From the NCBI GenBank assembly GCA_963701665.1, contig OY969622.1, positions 576,001-640,000 of the forward strand: DNA of 64,000 bases, given 5' to 3'. Below are positions 2-7,228 of this stretch, piece by piece. The number at the start of each line of letters is the position of its first letter. Within the stretch, counting starts at the first letter, position 1. The notes under the pieces are model-generated. The model was not told the origin of the DNA. It saw only the letters and a list, made by a program, of their open reading frames with translations, and ran no database searches. Source of the DNA: Candidatus Babeliales bacterium. Lineage in GTDB: Bacteria > Babelota > Babeliae > Babelales > JANWKD01. Both the position numbers and the translations under genes were made by a program.

Positions 2-1129
2 TCCCTGGCAAAAGCATTTGCGGATTATTGTGGATTGCCACGGCAATTTATCGTCGGTGCTTCATTGTTAAATCAATACCAACATTCAGGACAGCAGAAT
101 TTGCGCCTTCTTTTTGGACGATTGTTGCGGAAAAAGAATAAAAATCCACACGTTGTTATTTTTGATGAATTTTCAGCAATAGCTAGCCAGGATGATAAAA
201 AAGAAAAAAATAATGAAGAACAAATGCTTTCCGTTTTATTAAATATTATTGACCAATTTGAAGAACATAAAAATATACTTTTTATTGCAACAACAAACAA
301 CATCAAAGATATGCCTGCTCCAATAAAAGATCGCTTTTCAGGATCGGTTTTCAAAATTTCATTTCCGACTCTTGAGCAAAATTTGGATTACATCGAAAAT
401 GATTTGGATGATAAAAAATATGATGATGATTATGACAGTGAACATCCATCAGATGAATCTATACAAGAATTTGATGGAAAATTAGAATTTAAAGCTAACC
501 TAGACAAAAATACCAAAAAAACTTTAGCAAAAAAGATGTCTAATTTTAGCTGCAGAGATCGTAATGAAATGCGAGATAACTCAAGATTATTAGCATTGAG
601 AAAATTTGTTGATGAAAATTTTGACATAACTCAACTAGCTATTCCAGTAACTAAGGAAAATTTATTTGACGCAATAAAGGAAATTGAACTACATAAAAAA
701 GAATTTGCGCCTAGTACTTGGAAATACTATAAAGAGATTTTCAAAGATTATTACCCATTGGTTTCAACAACTGTTCAGGTTGCTGCTAGCATTGGCTTGC
801 AATGGTACAGTATAAGGCAACAGGCTGCTTTTACAAGATCATCCCATGAAAGTCAACTCTCATTGATGGAAGCTTTCCAAAACAGTCAAATGGCGTTCAG
901 TGAAAGAGTTCATCAAAATCAGATGGATTTTCAAACTAGAGTTCATGCAGAACAAATGGTATTTCAGAAAGAGGCAGCTCGAGACCAATTAGGTCAAAAT
1001 GTAAAGGCGGCTGATGATCAATTAGCTGCTCAAAAAAGTGCTGCAGGGTGGCAATTGGGTACGCAATGGTTTTTTGGCCTTGCTAGCTGGGTAGGGCCGA
1101 TCATCCTAAAAGGTACGGCTGGACAATAA
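2..1129 (+). CDS. AAA+ ATPase (5'-truncated by window edge) with C-terminal hydrophobic helix and 11-residue Gln-rich repeats
   Basis: Frame is open from base 2 (SLAKAFADYCG, the helix that follows Walker A). Walker B VVIFDE, sensor-1 IATTN, Arg finger IKDRF. Confidence 0.85.
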   Translation, partial: SLAKAFADYCGLPRQFIVGASLLNQYQHSGQQNLRLLFGRLLRKKNKNPHVVIFDEFSAIASQDDKKEKNNEEQMLSVLLNIIDQFEEHKNILFIATTNNIKDMPAPIKDRFSGSVFKISFPTLEQNLDYIENDLDDKKYDDDYDSEHPSDESIQEFDGKLEFKANLDKNTKKTLAKKMSNFSCRDRNEMRDNSRLLALRKFVDENFDITQLAIPVTKENLFDAIKEIELHKKEFAPSTWKYYKEIFKDYYPLVSTTVQVAASIGLQWYSIRQQAAFTRSSHESQLSLMEAFQNSQMAFSERVHQNQMDFQTRVHAEQMVFQKEAARDQLGQNVKAADDQLAAQKSAAGWQLGTQWFFGLASWVGPIILKGTAGQ

Positions 1130-1157
1130 TCTAAATAACCGCAAAGTACTATATACT

Positions 1158-3539
1158 ATGTTATTCCTTATTTTAATATGCGTATATTTCAATTTACCTT
1201 TTACTTCAAACGGGATGGAGGAAGGTAATAATAATCTTCCAATCATAATTGTAAACTCCCACACTAATTCAATATCTAGATTTGATCCGCATTCACAAAG
1301 GTTTGCCAAGCATGATGCATTAACAAAAAACTTATCGCATCTTACTAGACAAGAACTAGGACAAATGTATCGGCAAGCATGTGAAATACGTGATCAAAAG
1401 ATTGCTATCAATAAAGAAATAATTTTAGATGTTCATGCATATAATGCAAGCTTAAATTATGAGCCGCTTGATAAGGTTTTCACACTTTATAACTATCACC
1501 TAGCAACACCAGATAAGAACTTGATTTCGACAGTTGATAAGTTAATTCCTATTTTTTATACCCCTCAAGGATATTCTAACTTAACAGTAAATGCTTATGA
1601 AAGAACTATCGTTGCTCGTATTGTTGCAGACGCATTAAAAGTTAAACTACCTTATGCAATATATGTGGAAACTATCACAGCGTACGCCGCTCAGTATTCA
1701 GAATTTAAAGAAATTGTTGCACAGGAGACTCGATGGTTTCCTTGGGCCAAAGAAAAAGTTACTGAGTGGTGCGGATTAATTAAAGGTCATTTTTATGCAA
1801 AGCACCCACTGATAAATATCGATGTGCTGAAAAAGAATATTTTAGCACATGGGTTTAAGCAGAGTTTATTGAAAATCAGTGATTCTCGTTTAAATACTTT
1901 CCCTGCCACGAATATGAAAAAAGTCGATGCTCAATGTTGTTCTGATGTAGCGCATGCGCTTGGATGGCTACAAAAGAATAAAGAATTGATCAATAAGGAC
2001 ATTCTATCATGTAAAAGTCTTGATGCTGTTCAAGATTATCTGAGCGGTACTCCTGTTGAGCGTAGGCTCGTGCCTTTAACAGCAAATTTACTGAATGAAA
2101 TACAACACGGTATTGAATCTAAAGCTGAGCAGTCTCATCTTATGTGGTTGCAAGAATCACTCCTGCAGTTAGATACATGTGCAGGAAAAGTATGCGCTGA
2201 AAGTTCATATGAATCAAAAGCGGCCTTAATTGGTTTGATTTCTGAAATCGAAACTCAATTAGGTGTATTAACACGCCCAGAATTACGTAGATCGCCTTCA
2301 ATGGAAAAACTTTTTGCTCCACAGACAGATTTGCTTTTTACCAGTAAAGATGTAGGAGCAATATCCTTAGCTGAGCTAAAAAAATTTTCTGGGACTCCTG
2401 AACAGAATGCTTTGAACCTGAAAATGATAGATCATGTTGAAAAAATTCATTCATGCTATGAAAGCATAGTTGATAATGACGCTAAGCAAATTATTGAAAC
2501 ATATAATGCCCTCATTTCACAAGCTCATGAATTAACCAAAGATAGTTATATTACTGCCGCTGAAGGCGTTTTTACTGTTGCAAAAGACTTAGTTGAAATT
2601 GCGCTAATTGATCCTCCAGTTAATGAGATTTGTGATTATCTCGAGCAAACAGTCTCAAATCCCCAAGATTATGTTCTCAAAACAGTCGAAGGATATAAAT
2701 CAGTTGCGGGTGCTATTTTAAATGCATGTAAGTATACTTTGGAGAGACCATCGGCGGCTCCTGAGCAAAATTTTCAATTTGCATTGAATCAAAATAAAGC
2801 GATTCACGCATTCTTTGACGGGTGGGAAAAGCTCGAAGTTCAACAGAAAAAAGAATTTTTAGCACAAATTGTAGTTGATACGGCAATTAATAAAGTTGCT
2901 TATTCGCTGCCAAAATTAATTTTGAAAATAGGCGGCGGTTCCTCTGCAATCAGTTCTGCGATACAAAAAGCGGGGTCTGCTTTTGATAAAATTGATCCAG
3001 GTGCTTCAGGAGTTGTTGCAGTTGCTGTTCCTGCTAACATTGCAGAAAGCGTCGTTGGAGCCATAGAGCATGTTGCCGAAGTTGTGGGATCAATACCTGT
3101 TGCGGTTGCTACAGCAGGGATACAAGATACCGTTATGTTGTCAGAAGCGATGCAGGGTGGTGGAAATAATGTGCCTAATAAAACGTATGAATGCCCTGCT
3201 TCATGTCATTTTTTTGACAAAGAAGATAAAGTATTACGCATTATTGATAATGAAGTTATAAAGAATATTAGAAGTGGAAGTGCTTTAAAATTAGATGCGC
3301 ATCATGCATTTAATAATATGATTGATAATTATGTGGAATATGCTCAAAAATTCGAGCTCGTGGGCGATGATGGTATTAGTAGACCTTTATTCCAAATTAA
3401 AGGATCTCTAAATGGTGTCGAAGGAATCTTTGAATGGATTGTAGATCCGAATTCTTTAAATGGAGTTACACATAGATTATTCATTAAAAATGGGATTATT
3501 ACTGGTAAACCAAGCATTTTTCCATCTATGAAAAAATAA
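1158..3539 (+). CDS. Putative secreted polymorphic toxin (signal peptide, helical trunk, C-terminal toxin domain)
   Basis: 793-aa ORF with hydrophobic N-terminus and an Ala/Val/Gly-rich pre-toxin segment. C-terminal ~100 aa (GSALKLDAHH...GDDGISRPLFQIKGSLNGVEGIFEWIVD...VTHRLFI.NG.ITGKP) resembles toxin tips I recall from LXG/Rhs/CDI proteins. An immunity-like gene follows directly. Confidence 0.7.
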   Translation: MLFLILICVYFNLPFTSNGMEEGNNNLPIIIVNSHTNSISRFDPHSQRFAKHDALTKNLSHLTRQELGQMYRQACEIRDQKIAINKEIILDVHAYNASLNYEPLDKVFTLYNYHLATPDKNLISTVDKLIPIFYTPQGYSNLTVNAYERTIVARIVADALKVKLPYAIYVETITAYAAQYSEFKEIVAQETRWFPWAKEKVTEWCGLIKGHFYAKHPLINIDVLKKNILAHGFKQSLLKISDSRLNTFPATNMKKVDAQCCSDVAHALGWLQKNKELINKDILSCKSLDAVQDYLSGTPVERRLVPLTANLLNEIQHGIESKAEQSHLMWLQESLLQLDTCAGKVCAESSYESKAALIGLISEIETQLGVLTRPELRRSPSMEKLFAPQTDLLFTSKDVGAISLAELKKFSGTPEQNALNLKMIDHVEKIHSCYESIVDNDAKQIIETYNALISQAHELTKDSYITAAEGVFTVAKDLVEIALIDPPVNEICDYLEQTVSNPQDYVLKTVEGYKSVAGAILNACKYTLERPSAAPEQNFQFALNQNKAIHAFFDGWEKLEVQQKKEFLAQIVVDTAINKVAYSLPKLILKIGGGSSAISSAIQKAGSAFDKIDPGASGVVAVAVPANIAESVVGAIEHVAEVVGSIPVAVATAGIQDTVMLSEAMQGGGNNVPNKTYECPASCHFFDKEDKVLRIIDNEVIKNIRSGSALKLDAHHAFNNMIDNYVEYAQKFELVGDDGISRPLFQIKGSLNGVEGIFEWIVDPNSLNGVTHRLFIKNGIITGKPSIFPSMKK

Positions 3540-3544
3540 ACAAA

Positions 3545-4069
3545 ATGAAAATTGAAAACATTTTTTTAAAAATTTTTAAGGAAAATAATATACCGATCTC
3601 CTGGAAAACAATTATTATAGGAAGAAAATTAGGACTTGCGGATTCTAAGCTTATAGATGAATATGCAACCCAATATCTTCTTGATAACTATAAAATTGAA
3701 AATCCGTATATTATTGCATTAGCAAGTGGGGTAAATGATAATGAAATCGACTCTATTTTAGATAATCTTACACGATTATTAAATTTAGAAGCAACGTTAA
3801 ATGCTGAACTTGAAATTAGAAAATGGAGATATGCACAATTAAAAAAACTTTTATTGAAAAAATACAAAAATAATGAATTATTATACAAAATAGAAGAAAT
3901 TTATGCTGATTTCTCTTATCCTGAAGATATGCGGCATTTAATATATTATATTCCCAGTGGCAACTTTGATACATCAAAACACACTAAAGAAGAATGTCAA
4001 CAACGTTTGATTAATCTCTTTTATGCATTTTTACAAAAAGAGCAATCAGAATTATCAAATCAATGTTAA
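3545..4069 (+). CDS. DUF2247-family protein, putative cognate immunity protein
   Basis: Motifs ISW..I..G, KWRY..L and IEEIYADFSYPEDMRHLIYYIP are characteristic of DUF2247. Starts 5 bp after the toxin stop. Confidence 0.75.
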   Translation: MKIENIFLKIFKENNIPISWKTIIIGRKLGLADSKLIDEYATQYLLDNYKIENPYIIALASGVNDNEIDSILDNLTRLLNLEATLNAELEIRKWRYAQLKKLLLKKYKNNELLYKIEEIYADFSYPEDMRHLIYYIPSGNFDTSKHTKEECQQRLINLFYAFLQKEQSELSNQC

Positions 4070-4075
4070 CAAATT

Positions 4076-4264
4076 TTGATGATGTATTCCCGCTCTTTAG
4101 ATAAAATTCAAAAATTAGGAAAAAATTATGGGGTAATGATCGATTGGCAAAATAAAATATTATTAGATTGTTCAAATTCCATTTTTTCTGGTTTATACGA
4201 GGACATCTTAAATGTTATTTATGAGCAAAAATTATCATTTAATAACGAATGTAAAAAAACCTAA
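4076..4264 (+). other. Small AT-rich ORF or gene remnant (possible orphan immunity fragment)
   Basis: 62-aa ORF packed between the immunity gene and the AAA ATPase; no recognisable motif. Confidence 0.3.
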
Positions 4265-4273
4265 TGCATAGTT

Positions 4274-5524
4274 ATGTTCACTATCTTTTCAAGCAACTGG
4301 ATTATCATGTATCGAAAATCTTTAATCTATAAGACAATAGTTATTCTTCTAATTATGAACCATCTTTCACTGATAGGTAACACCTCTTATCAAGAGTTTC
4401 CTCCTGAATTACTTCAAGTTGCTTCTGATGAAATTTCTCGTTTATTAGCAGAAAAAGAAGAAACGTTTAAGAAAAAAAATACAGAAATATGCCTTTCAAA
4501 AAAGGACATTATTCTTGATTCAGCACTCATTACTCAATTGATTTCGCAATGTCCAGAAAGATTGAATGATATTATTAGTGCATTAATAATGCGGAATCAA
4601 TTTAATGATGATATCTATCAAGAATTTATTCCGCATCATATTGTTCTTGTTGGGCCGCTTGGTGTTGGCAAAAGTAGTTTGGCCAGAGCTATTGCACAAG
4701 CAGCTTGCGTTTCTTATACCTTTATCAAATCAATGGCATTAGCTAATGAATATATTAATTCAGGGCCAAGTAATCTTATGAGGATTTTTGATCCTATATT
4801 AGAAACAGATGAACCGTACATTGTTATTATTGATGAATTACAAACAATCATTAGAAGAAAAGATAACAATGAATTTGATATGGCAACGGCAGAAGTACTA
4901 TGGATGTTGCTTGATGAATGTAAGGCAAAAAATAACATTATGATAATTGCAACTGCTAATGATATTTCTGATTTGCCCGAACAGCTAAAAAGCCGTTTTG
5001 CAAAAAGTGTCTATGAAATAAAATTGCCAGGTTTATTAGCGCGTGAACGCATTATTAGTCATTATATAGAAAACAGTAAGGCAGATAGCAGCAATATTAC
5101 TCATGCAGTTATTAAAAATTTAGCGCAAAAAACAAGAGGTTTTTCACCGCGTAATTTAGAAGATCTTATTGAAATAGCTTTTTCACGAGCATTTTTTAGA
5201 GCTAAACGAGAAAATGACTTTGTCATATCTCTTACTAAAAAAGATTTAGACATAGGATTTGCTCATATTAAAAAACAGAAAGGAAGCTCGTACGGTATAC
5301 CAACATGGTGTAAAAATTTCGTAAAATTATTGGGTCCTGTGGCTACTATTTCATTGGGACTTACTGTGCTTCAGATAACGATACAATGTTTTCTGCAATA
5401 TTATGATCATCAGCGATATTTATCTTTGATACAGCAACATCATAATGATTTTGTACGCATTAATGGACAGCATAACAAAGCAATATTACAGCAGAATGAA
5501 AGATTTCATCAAGCAAAAATGTAA
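4274..5524 (+). CDS. AAA+ ATPase, paralog of 2..1129, with N-terminal hydrophobic segment and C-terminal TM helix plus His/Gln repeats
   Basis: Walker A GPLGVGKS, Walker B IVIIDE, sensor-1 IATAN, Arg finger LKSRF, TM LLGPVATISLGLTVLQITIQCFL. True start may be ATG 4307. Confidence 0.88.
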   Translation: MFTIFSSNWIIMYRKSLIYKTIVILLIMNHLSLIGNTSYQEFPPELLQVASDEISRLLAEKEETFKKKNTEICLSKKDIILDSALITQLISQCPERLNDIISALIMRNQFNDDIYQEFIPHHIVLVGPLGVGKSSLARAIAQAACVSYTFIKSMALANEYINSGPSNLMRIFDPILETDEPYIVIIDELQTIIRRKDNNEFDMATAEVLWMLLDECKAKNNIMIIATANDISDLPEQLKSRFAKSVYEIKLPGLLARERIISHYIENSKADSSNITHAVIKNLAQKTRGFSPRNLEDLIEIAFSRAFFRAKRENDFVISLTKKDLDIGFAHIKKQKGSSYGIPTWCKNFVKLLGPVATISLGLTVLQITIQCFLQYYDHQRYLSLIQQHHNDFVRINGQHNKAILQQNERFHQAKM

Positions 5525-5554: not shown

Positions 5555-7228
5555 ATGCAAAAGAGAATGCCATTGAGCTTTTTCATAATTATTATGATTA
5601 GTTTTAAGCTCTGTGCCTGGGCAAAAGATAATGGTAAAAAAGATGCAGATTTTATAAAGAGGTTTGGAGAAGAATATTTTAAGGTACCTGTTGAGAAGGA
5701 TGATAATAACGATCTATATATTAATGCATGTGAATTAATAAATCTTTTCCAAACAATTGTCTTTGAAACAATGAATGATATATTTGCTGAAATAACAGAT
5801 GAAAGGCTTGAAGGATTTCAGATTGAGCAATCCCCTACTAAGCAACCTGAAAAGGTGACTCTATATACAAGTGTAGCAGAGCAAAATAATAAAACGGGGC
5901 ATGAAAAAATTGTACAATTAATTTCTACTATTTTAATGCAAAAAAGTTTAAAGGAAACAGTCAATTTTGTTAAACAAATATCGCCAGAAACAAAAAAGGT
6001 CATTAAAGAAATAATTAATACTCCTGATAAACATTGGAGTAATACATTTTTACACAAAGCTTCAACCGCTTTGGAAGTAGAGCAACTTTTGTTACTTGGA
6101 GCAGATCCTGAAATAAAAAATGAGTTAGGGCGAACACCATTAATGGCGTTACTTTTTGATGGTAAATGTGAAGCAGCCAAGATGCTTATTTCGAAATTAC
6201 CTTCATTTGATTTTTCTATGGTAGATAATGAAGGTGCAAATTTAACACTATGTGCTGTTCGCAGTGGTGATACTAAAATTGTAGATTTATTCTTGAAAAA
6301 AGGTGGGAGTTTAAATAGCGAAGTAGGCGGAGTAACACCTTTACTGATAGCCGTAGGTGCAAGAAATATACCAATGGTTAGGTATTTATTAAAGTTAGGA
6401 GTTGATGTTAATCAGGCGATTACCGCTACAGATTTTTCGGATTCTAATCGGGAAAATCTGCCTGATACCTCTGATATTATAGGGGTAACGCCGCTTATGA
6501 TGGCAGCCTCAAATGACGATGGTGAGATGGTAAGATTATTATTAAAAGCAGGAGCGAATGTTAATGCAATGTGCCTAGATGGTTCAACAGCATTGATAAA
6601 ATCTTTGGCAGGATCAAATGTGTTTAAGATCCTAATTGATGCTGGTGCAAATGTTAATGTAACAACACATAATGGGTTTACGGCTTTATTAGCTGCAACA
6701 ATAATACAGCCAAATGCTATTATGCCATTATTGAAAGCTGGGGCGTTGGCTAATAGTGAAATTTCTAAGGACTATTTTATTCCCGATATGCCTTCTGTTA
6801 ATTTGCAAGGGTTAACGCCATTATTAATGGCGATAAAAAATGCACCAGATACTGTACTGTTTCTTATTGATGCTGGTGCAAATATCAACCACAGAACAGA
6901 TGAAGGACTTACACCTCTCATGATGGCGGTCATTTCAAACAACATTGATTTAATTTCTCAGTTACTTGAAAAAGGAGCGCAAGTAAATTGTGCAATGATA
7001 TGTGACAGTCCGTATCTAAAAGTGCTGTTGCAAGATTGTTTATCATCAAAATTTGATGCAGACACAACAGGATTAACGCCACTTATGATAGCAACAATTT
7101 TAGATGAAGCGCCTACCGTTACTATTTTGCTAAAGCATGGTGCTGATAGAAATGTAAAAAATGCAAAGGGACTTACTGCTTTGAATATGGCAATCATGAA
7201 AAATATTGCAGAGATATTATCAGTTTAA
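5555..7228 (+). CDS. Secreted ankyrin-repeat protein
   Basis: Signal-peptide-like N-terminus; many G.TPL..A...G.....V..LL..GA.VN repeats. Confidence 0.92.
   Translation: MQKRMPLSFFIIIMISFKLCAWAKDNGKKDADFIKRFGEEYFKVPVEKDDNNDLYINACELINLFQTIVFETMNDIFAEITDERLEGFQIEQSPTKQPEKVTLYTSVAEQNNKTGHEKIVQLISTILMQKSLKETVNFVKQISPETKKVIKEIINTPDKHWSNTFLHKASTALEVEQLLLLGADPEIKNELGRTPLMALLFDGKCEAAKMLISKLPSFDFSMVDNEGANLTLCAVRSGDTKIVDLFLKKGGSLNSEVGGVTPLLIAVGARNIPMVRYLLKLGVDVNQAITATDFSDSNRENLPDTSDIIGVTPLMMAASNDDGEMVRLLLKAGANVNAMCLDGSTALIKSLAGSNVFKILIDAGANVNVTTHNGFTALLAATIIQPNAIMPLLKAGALANSEISKDYFIPDMPSVNLQGLTPLLMAIKNAPDTVLFLIDAGANINHRTDEGLTPLMMAVISNNIDLISQLLEKGAQVNCAMICDSPYLKVLLQDCLSSKFDADTTGLTPLMIATILDEAPTVTILLKHGADRNVKNAKGLTALNMAIMKNIAEILSV

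Follow-up and report, generated by a model that had tools for sequence, protein, structure and literature searches.

A block of five genes at the start of the window (64,000 nucleotides, G000:C1:576001-640000, from the source genome G000, a member of the Dependentiae (Babelota) consisting of a single contig of 1.34 Mb) encodes a protein of 793 amino acids (aa) that, judged from its sequence, is a true polymorphic toxin. It is accompanied by a putative immunity protein and flanked by two AAA ATPases, here called AAA1 and AAA2. The system is of a known kind, and the toxin tip (Ntox19) with its DUF2247 partner (Imm38) is an already known pair; new are the trunk family and the AAA gene, which is a recurring partner of toxin genes. 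An ORF check (ORF, open reading frame) found all five ORFs on the + strand at the positions given in the original prediction, including the 5-bp gap behind the toxin gene (Table 1). The same check recovered the motifs quoted for the tip, the stretch rich in Ala, Val and Gly, and the two ATPase loops, NQYQHSG and NEYINSG. In the following, G001 is a genome of the same genus and L numbers denote DNA stretches that were compared.

The order of toxin tip and small gene had been read as polymorphic-toxin architecture, and the relatives of the trunk bore this out. Close trunk relatives were found in 4/41 genomes, all from the window's family. Six close aligned trunks bear three tip types, and the first downstream gene, that for immunity, varies along with the tip. 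P0012 has another tip, yet is 80% identical over the aligned trunk, and altogether 94 toxin tips fell into 28 clusters. Neither invariant C-termini nor a lack of AAA linkage, two of the three outcomes named beforehand as contradicting the prediction, was found among the trunk relatives. At the orthologous locus of G001, AAA1 is 51% and AAA2 75% identical and the downstream genes are common to both genomes; the toxin there has an Ntox35-like tip followed by a new first immunity gene, with Imm38 retained behind it. A second G001 locus bears Ntox19 where G000 has a third tip, and the tips of the two genomes sit at opposite loci. In G000, locus C contains an array of extra immunity genes. Such spare immunity genes (Imm38 in G001 and the locus C array) fit attack by other bacteria, and the target is likely to be rival bacteria in the same protist host. 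The block had been described as AT-rich, but it is not unusual for this genome: the GC fraction of the trunk (0.37) is that of the whole genome (0.37), and only the tip (0.30) and the immunity gene (0.26) lie below it, as expected of an exchanged cassette.

Several toxin loci were noted in passing. At L020 (G000:C1:1012653-1019831) an AAA gene and a 936-aa Ntox35 toxin are accompanied by fragments of Imm38 and by arrayed immunity genes that are paralogues of one another. L023 (G000:C1:1035143-1040031) is an AAA-toxin-immunity locus with a 1054-aa toxin of unclassified tip. In the genome record the G001 toxin ortholog (L016:6976-9425) appears as two separate ORFs and the 662-aa record P0002 reads through the region, which is either an assembly error or a strain difference. 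Both ends of contig G003:C1 carry the same toxin-immunity region in inverted copies (L017, L021), probably an assembly artefact.

The 174-aa product of the gene behind the toxin matches DUF2247 of Pfam with 96 bits (cut-off 25), as had been proposed. In the accessible text of Zhang et al. (2012, PMC3482391) DUF2247 is Imm38 and its main toxin partner is Ntox19, a predicted BECR RNase with the motifs D, H, DxxxR, E and HxxF; DUF2247 is likewise treated as Imm38 in the part of PMC11566119 that is accessible. The tip has no Pfam match. It contains all the published Ntox19 motifs (Table 1), and over 20 aligned tip rows D713, H716, E759, H772 and F775 are invariant, D738 is nearly so and R742 is present in the majority. 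With all listed motifs and an Imm38 partner, the pair that had been put forward as new is the published one, and the locus is a clean handle on Ntox19-Imm38, which was predicted in 2012. Ntox19 tips were found in 9 GTDB loci (including Neisseriaceae, Lachnospiraceae and Bacillus), with a detectable Imm38 adjoining in 7/9, and elsewhere they ride PT-TG, LXG and haemagglutinin-repeat carriers in other phyla. The export routes named for Ntox19 in the accessible part of PMC3482391 are MafB-N, the type V and type VII secretion systems and TcdB/TcaC, and TM6/Dependentiae are not named there; unlike these routes, the carrier in the window is an unclassified helical trunk. A structure model of the tip is confident (pLDDT 85) and gave weak fold matches to RelE (Z 4.2, root mean square deviation 3.1, 68 aligned), BrnT (4.2), MqsR (4.0) and colicin D (3.8), tied with unrelated folds; Foldseek on this model returned no match and no solved relative of Ntox19-Imm38 was found. 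The model is compatible with the predicted BECR RNase fold, short of proof. The tip, a predicted RNase, is likely to be neutralised by the downstream Imm38.

The 793-aa protein belongs to no Pfam family and has a single unrelated, sub-threshold match in NCBIfam. As the original prediction had stated, no MafB, CdiA, LXG, Rhs, PAAR or VgrG domain of Pfam was found in the trunk; none of these families occurred among 21 module members either. The trunk profile matched 5/261 genomes of the phylum (one marginal) and 16 of 1.84 billion representatives. Within the trunk lies a pre-toxin module that extends far beyond these relatives. A module profile built from other families alone aligns to that of the window's family (hhalign 89.7%, E 1.9e-6); used by itself, it gives the window protein a weak score (E 0.013), with stronger ones for the relatives of that protein (down to 5e-6). 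The joint profile found 306 places in 125/261 genomes. No relevant Pfam or PDB match to the module was obtained, the PDB profile search giving only helical designs and chance rows. The trunk model is all-helical (pLDDT 69, pTM 0.36) and had no match in Foldseek, which is weak evidence since the model is only moderate. The ESM Atlas gave unnamed clusters, with sub-0.9 leads to MafB, EndoU carriers, PT-TG and Ntox35. Metagenome scans with the trunk and AAA1 found nothing. Viral contigs contained no trunk and 79 generic AAA loci, 0 of them with the trunk module, so that no phage link was found. By these profile and domain searches the trunk appears to be a new family outside the known delivery families.

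In overall plan the protein resembles the Sec-exported toxins MafB of Neisseria, APD1/APD2 of Amoebophilus and those of Microscilla, with which it has in common a signal peptide, a lineage-specific constant N-terminal part, a variable C-terminal toxin and downstream immunity arrays. It differs in that no MafB Pfam match (the sub-threshold language-model lead alone) and no lipobox were noted. Furthermore, the Sec route stands without a signature neighbour gene in Table 1 of PMC3482391, whereas in Dependentiae an AAA gene recurs. Two observations concern the trunks of other toxins. The toxins behind one AAA subclade, that with a canonical pore loop (L041, L042, L053, L066, L094), have in common a short motif, DK/R-V/I-Y-S/T-x-EE...G...LT, seen by eye and lying outside the profiles built. 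In the AAA-adjacent toxins at L086:3431-4672 and L093:3118-4737 the trunk, which ends with HNFY...ILVHN, reads like a putative Hint self-splicing domain.

Both ATPases match PF00004 and are classic-clade AAA+ proteins, with the p97/VAT/Cdc48 unfoldases as best PDB matches. Among 94 family members the Walker A Ser/Thr is kept in 92, the Walker B Glu in 90, the sensor-1 Asn in 92, the Arg finger in 90 and the pore Tyr/Phe in 85; in AAA2 the residues K133, S134, Y160, D187, E188, N229 and R241 are all intact. The family splits into two main subclades. The divergent one includes the two proteins of the window; the other is conserved and its pore loop is canonical. In a tree of 46 rows a branch at 94/88 (not starred) separates 31 putatively secreted AAA proteins from the FtsH/CDC48-like rows, and grouping of the canonical-loop subclade with FtsH was rejected (p-AU 9e-5). 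No M41 match of Pfam was found in the ATPases, by which they do not qualify as FtsH. The anti-phage system IetAS was likewise rejected: IetA scored 25-42 bits against a cut-off of 510, PADLOC matches only the AAA core, and no neighbour matches the S8 peptidase expected of that system. Proteins of ~897 aa with two AAA domains were noted at G000:C1:814178-816871, L136 and L137; in G020 and G037 the ends of these proteins resemble FtsH, and additional FtsH paralogues are present in these genomes.

Scored by a hydrophobicity rule, in place of a signal-peptide predictor, hydrophobic N-termini were present in 84/95 AAA proteins and 70/94 toxins and in 5/83 immunity proteins. A hydrophobic leader followed by [ACGS]-M-[EDNQ] occurs in 163/1,170 proteins of G000, compared with 15/484 lacking a leader (3% background). 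AAA1 and the toxin both carry this signal-plus-x-M-E/N signature, which may be a phylum-specific export or cleavage signature. The ATPases had also been called membrane-tailed. This holds for AAA2 (KD19 1.78) and not for AAA1, which has weak stretches of about 1.0; in the family, 29/94 members have a C-terminal hydrophobic stretch. According to the accessible text of PMC4378268, Babela massiliensis, of the same phylum, has expanded signal-peptide AAA proteins, the AAA-Ulp1-like fusions. The window proteins appear to differ from these in showing the AAA domain only, with no C48 match of Pfam (the published Babela domain is circularly permuted and may escape Pfam, and the comparison is by description only), and in that text no toxin linkage is reported.

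The AAA gene and the toxin gene recur together. In G000 each of the detectable toxins (3/3) comes directly after an AAA-family gene, at three distant loci; the family has four genes there, AAA2 being the fourth, and the naive chance of such an arrangement among ~1,170 genes is 1.5e-8. Where upstream DNA was available for close trunk relatives, the AAA gene was upstream in 5/5, and the G003 toxin sits at a contig start. More distant module proteins of the window's family that lack an AAA gene are those at L033 (with an insertion sequence upstream), L132 and L133. Across the phylum, an AAA profile, with scoring limited to six candidates in each genome and a threshold of E 1e-40, matched at least 55/261 genomes, and a forward sample of 60 stretches took in 69 of the 88 AAA matches outside G000, G001 and G004. 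Forty of 65 AAA clusters had a next gene of at least 400 aa; after dropping four (WD40-like, Sel1, phosphomutase and a second AAA), 36/65 led into a toxin gene, in 30 genomes, 15 genera and 5 families. In three of these a single small gene intervenes, and the truncated L057 is an uncertain case. Support came for 15/36 from a Pfam toxin tip (EndoU 9, Ntox35, Ntox21, DUF4258) or from a small neighbouring gene with a Pfam match (CdiI_ImmP 2, DUF6980), and the remainder were called from trunk modules, common tips or layout. In any orientation a toxin was found in 44/60 stretches. The flanking of the toxin by two ATPases is kept in the same-genus ortholog; more usually a single AAA gene, or a pair of them, stands ahead of the toxin. 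At L062, L073, L076, L059 and L035 the AAA gene and the toxin operon run towards one another, and the immunity genes lie in the middle.

A reverse sample was taken from the toxin side, using the best listed module match from each of 37 further genomes outside the window's family. Genomes already used and five matches too near the contig start were left out, and two of the 37 had no upstream DNA (n=35). A co-oriented AAA gene was upstream in 11 (two cut off, two weak; four from one genus) and a divergent one in 2 (one perhaps of another AAA type). The exclusion of AAA-sampled genomes lowers this adjacency figure. The AAA-linked toxins were longer, with a median of 946 aa (n=11) against 669 aa for unlinked ones (n=18; p=0.003, kinship uncorrected, eight cut or broken rows left out). 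The N-terminal trunk modules N1/N2 as an AAA-specific handle were rejected, being absent from most AAA-linked toxins of the reverse sample and present in some AAA-free ones. As a separate observation, L134 (G233:C1:1001000-1019000) has four tandem module toxins with differing tips and immunity genes and no adjacent AAA gene; this genome has AAA genes elsewhere.

We tentatively read the block as a Dependentiae toxin operon with an optional, co-exported AAA+ unfoldase that would use host ATP for long trunks, and hold this to be the most probable of the readings considered, although not probable enough to be asserted. It is drawn from the constant trunk and exchanged tips, the tip-matched immunity, the AAA-toxin adjacency, the AAA motifs and the hydrophobic N-termini of toxin and AAA proteins; what goes beyond gene linkage, motif conservation and N-terminal hydrophobicity we infer. 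Toxin and ATPase would leave the producer by Sec, and Sec export and vesicles are described for the phylum in the accessible part of PMC6561590. The ATPase, as a hexamer, would work in the periplasm or a host compartment on host ATP, and would grip and thread the long helical trunk, by which the tip would be released, unfolded or pushed through a membrane; toxins with a short trunk would do without it. Four ATP/ADP translocase gene matches in G000 suggest that host nucleotides reach the periplasm. Two secretin-domain matches of G000 (L150, L151; C1:9233-14955), in open frames of ~1,000 aa, are candidates for outer-membrane exit. In a bolder version an energy parasite would export its own AAA+ motor with a nuclease toxin, and the motor would thread the toxin into rival bacteria or host organelles on host ATP, outside the cytoplasm of the producer; such a new delivery route we consider doubtful.

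A number of findings weigh against the co-exported unfoldase. AAA1 has Gly in place of Ser/Thr in its Walker A motif (GPPGAGKG), the sole case among the 94, and the pore loop in the window's clade is non-canonical (Tyr, then polar residues and Asn/His). The N-terminus may be an uncleaved anchor instead of a cleaved signal peptide. No toxin was detected in 16/60 AAA stretches, several AAA genes follow immunity genes or face the toxin, and 22/35 of the independently picked module toxins had no AAA neighbour. Five genomes with a completeness of 95% or more carry 8-12 module matches apiece, and their AAA hits are only FtsH-like or of other kinds. An obligate dedicated translocase is thereby rejected, and the linkage claimed in the original prediction stands while the word dedicated is weakened: the AAA gene mostly comes with a toxin, and the toxin does not need the AAA gene. 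Across genera AAA and trunk similarity are uncorrelated (45 pairs, rho 0.07, reached by 54/500 shuffles) and one well-conserved AAA clade precedes mutually unrelated trunks, so that there is no sign of a lock-and-key interface. On the toxin side, the match of the tip to the BECR fold is weak (Z 4.2).

The missing co-variation and the loose linkage would also suit ATPases that do not act on the toxins at all and are either effectors aimed independently at the host or passengers sharing variable islands with the toxins. The N-terminal signature recurs on many exported proteins of Dependentiae (the 163 of G000), and the expanded signal-peptide AAA-peptidase fusions of Babela are thought to act in the amoeba, as far as the accessible text of PMC4378268 goes. 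Yet of these ~163 exported-type proteins it is the AAA family, with four genes, that directly precedes all three toxins at three distant loci, and the arrangement recurs, before trunks that are unrelated, in two AAA subclades and in no fewer than seven host families. We rate this alternative as unlikely. The missing co-variation would also fit a generalist in a defensive role, in which the ATPase, as an Msp1-like envelope extractor, would pull incoming trunk toxins from the membrane or periplasm and protect toxin carriers independently of the tip. AAA genes do stand after immunity genes (AAA2 of the window; L046, L052, L061, L070, L092), in L090, a stretch without a toxin, the AAA gene comes after a series of small immunity-like genes, and toxins in other genomes work without it. 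However, the AAA gene most often opens the operon and immediately precedes the toxin (36/65), the toxin-rich genomes that would need defence most lack the family, and a link to longer trunks of the own toxin is unexpected under defence. We rate this role as less likely again.

The topology might also be the reverse of that assumed so far. In that case an ATPase anchored in the inner membrane of the producer and facing the cytoplasm, where ATP is certain, would strip off the immunity protein or unfold the toxin for SecYEG; a folded nuclease-immunity complex would hinder Sec export, and longer trunks would need more of such help. However, the AAA N-termini resemble cleavable signals (basic residues, a short h-region and often the x-M-E signature, as in ankyrin effectors), a topology that would put the AAA domain outside, and in tips and immunity genes the short AAA-free toxins are no different. 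This Sec-feeding role is considered the least probable of all, and the co-exported unfoldase remains favoured over each of the three.

An AAA+ motor that moves a nuclease toxin across a membrane has a works-like parallel in the nuclease colicins, which, as described in the accessible part of PMC9424206, enter via the AAA+ protease FtsH. FtsH is a protein of the victim and includes a protease domain, whereas the window-type ATPases are the producer's own and have none; if the co-exported unfoldase is real, the attacker would supply the translocase that colicins borrow from their victim. CDC48-like AAA genes of Photorhabdus virulence cassettes and other extracellular contractile injection systems, and ClpV of type VI secretion systems, likewise stand beside polymorphic toxins and the former resemble the window ATPases in sequence. 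These proteins are cytoplasmic and serve a phage-tail syringe, whereas the window ATPases have a signal-peptide-like N-terminus; phage-tail or baseplate genes were not recognised in the toxin neighbourhoods read by eye, with no genome-wide family search. HSP101 of the Plasmodium PTEX translocon is an exported AAA+ unfoldase of the Clp clade that works in the parasite vacuole with a pore partner, and mitochondrial Msp1 is a membrane-anchored single-ring extractor. Both are analogies only, and a pore partner of the HSP101 type was not seen at the window system.

AAA+ motors normally act where ATP is, in the cytoplasm. A family that is seemingly exported and linked to toxins would be an uncommon case of an ATPase outside the cytoplasm, and may represent a new mode of toxin transport through membranes. 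Published accounts portray Dependentiae as parasites that depend on their host, have ankyrin effectors and export by Sec/type II (PMC4378268, PMC6561590, as far as accessible), and one survey describes its Babelota genomes, in its accessible part, as devoid of toxin-antitoxin systems (PMC12644861). In the open literature no description of Dependentiae polymorphic toxins or of an AAA-toxin link was found, subscription papers being outside the search. The pre-toxin module, so far unannotated, is present in about half of the phylum's genomes (125/261), where it comes with dozens of tips of nuclease type and with arrays of immunity genes; this points to conflict between bacteria within protist cells.

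Table 1. Features of the toxin block; positions are those of the window
Feature	Position	Strand	Remarks
AAA1, 3' part of the gene for a 538-aa AAA+ ATPase with putative signal peptide	2..1129, open at 5'	+	PF00004; Walker A variant GKG; Gln/His-rich tail
Toxin, whole ORF, 793 aa	1158-3539	+	ORF
Toxin, signal-peptide-like segment	1158..1214	+	Ends before the G-M-E signature common to 163 exported-type G000 proteins
Toxin trunk	1215..3167	+	Predicted all-alpha; includes pre-toxin module and Ala/Val/Gly-rich segment (about aa 612-664)
Pre-toxin module, phylum-wide	2265-2897 (about aa 370-580)	+	Profile
Toxin tip, Ntox19 (predicted BECR-fold RNase)	3168..3539	+	D713, H716, D738-x3-R742, E759, H772-x2-F775
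Imm38 / DUF2247, 174 aa, putative cognate cytoplasmic immunity protein	3545..4069	+	Pfam DUF2247; 5-bp gap after toxin
62-aa ORF	4076..4264	+	No homologues
AAA2, 416-aa AAA+ ATPase with putative signal peptide	4274..5524	+	PF00004; C-terminal hydrophobic stretch aa 352-370

The AAA1 gene starts at genome position 575513, 487 bases before the window, with a signal-peptide-like N-terminus, and is the first gene downstream of a terminator-like hairpin. AAA2 may start at the ATG at 4307. No homologue of the 62-aa ORF was found among the loci compared, the orthologous G001 locus included, and it probably lies outside the toxin system. There was no Rfam match, and promoter matches were at chance level. 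AAA2 is followed by an ankyrin gene (window 5555-7228). In G001 an 894-aa protein (L019:3863-6547) has an ankyrin-like N-terminal part fused to an AAA domain close to that of AAA2.

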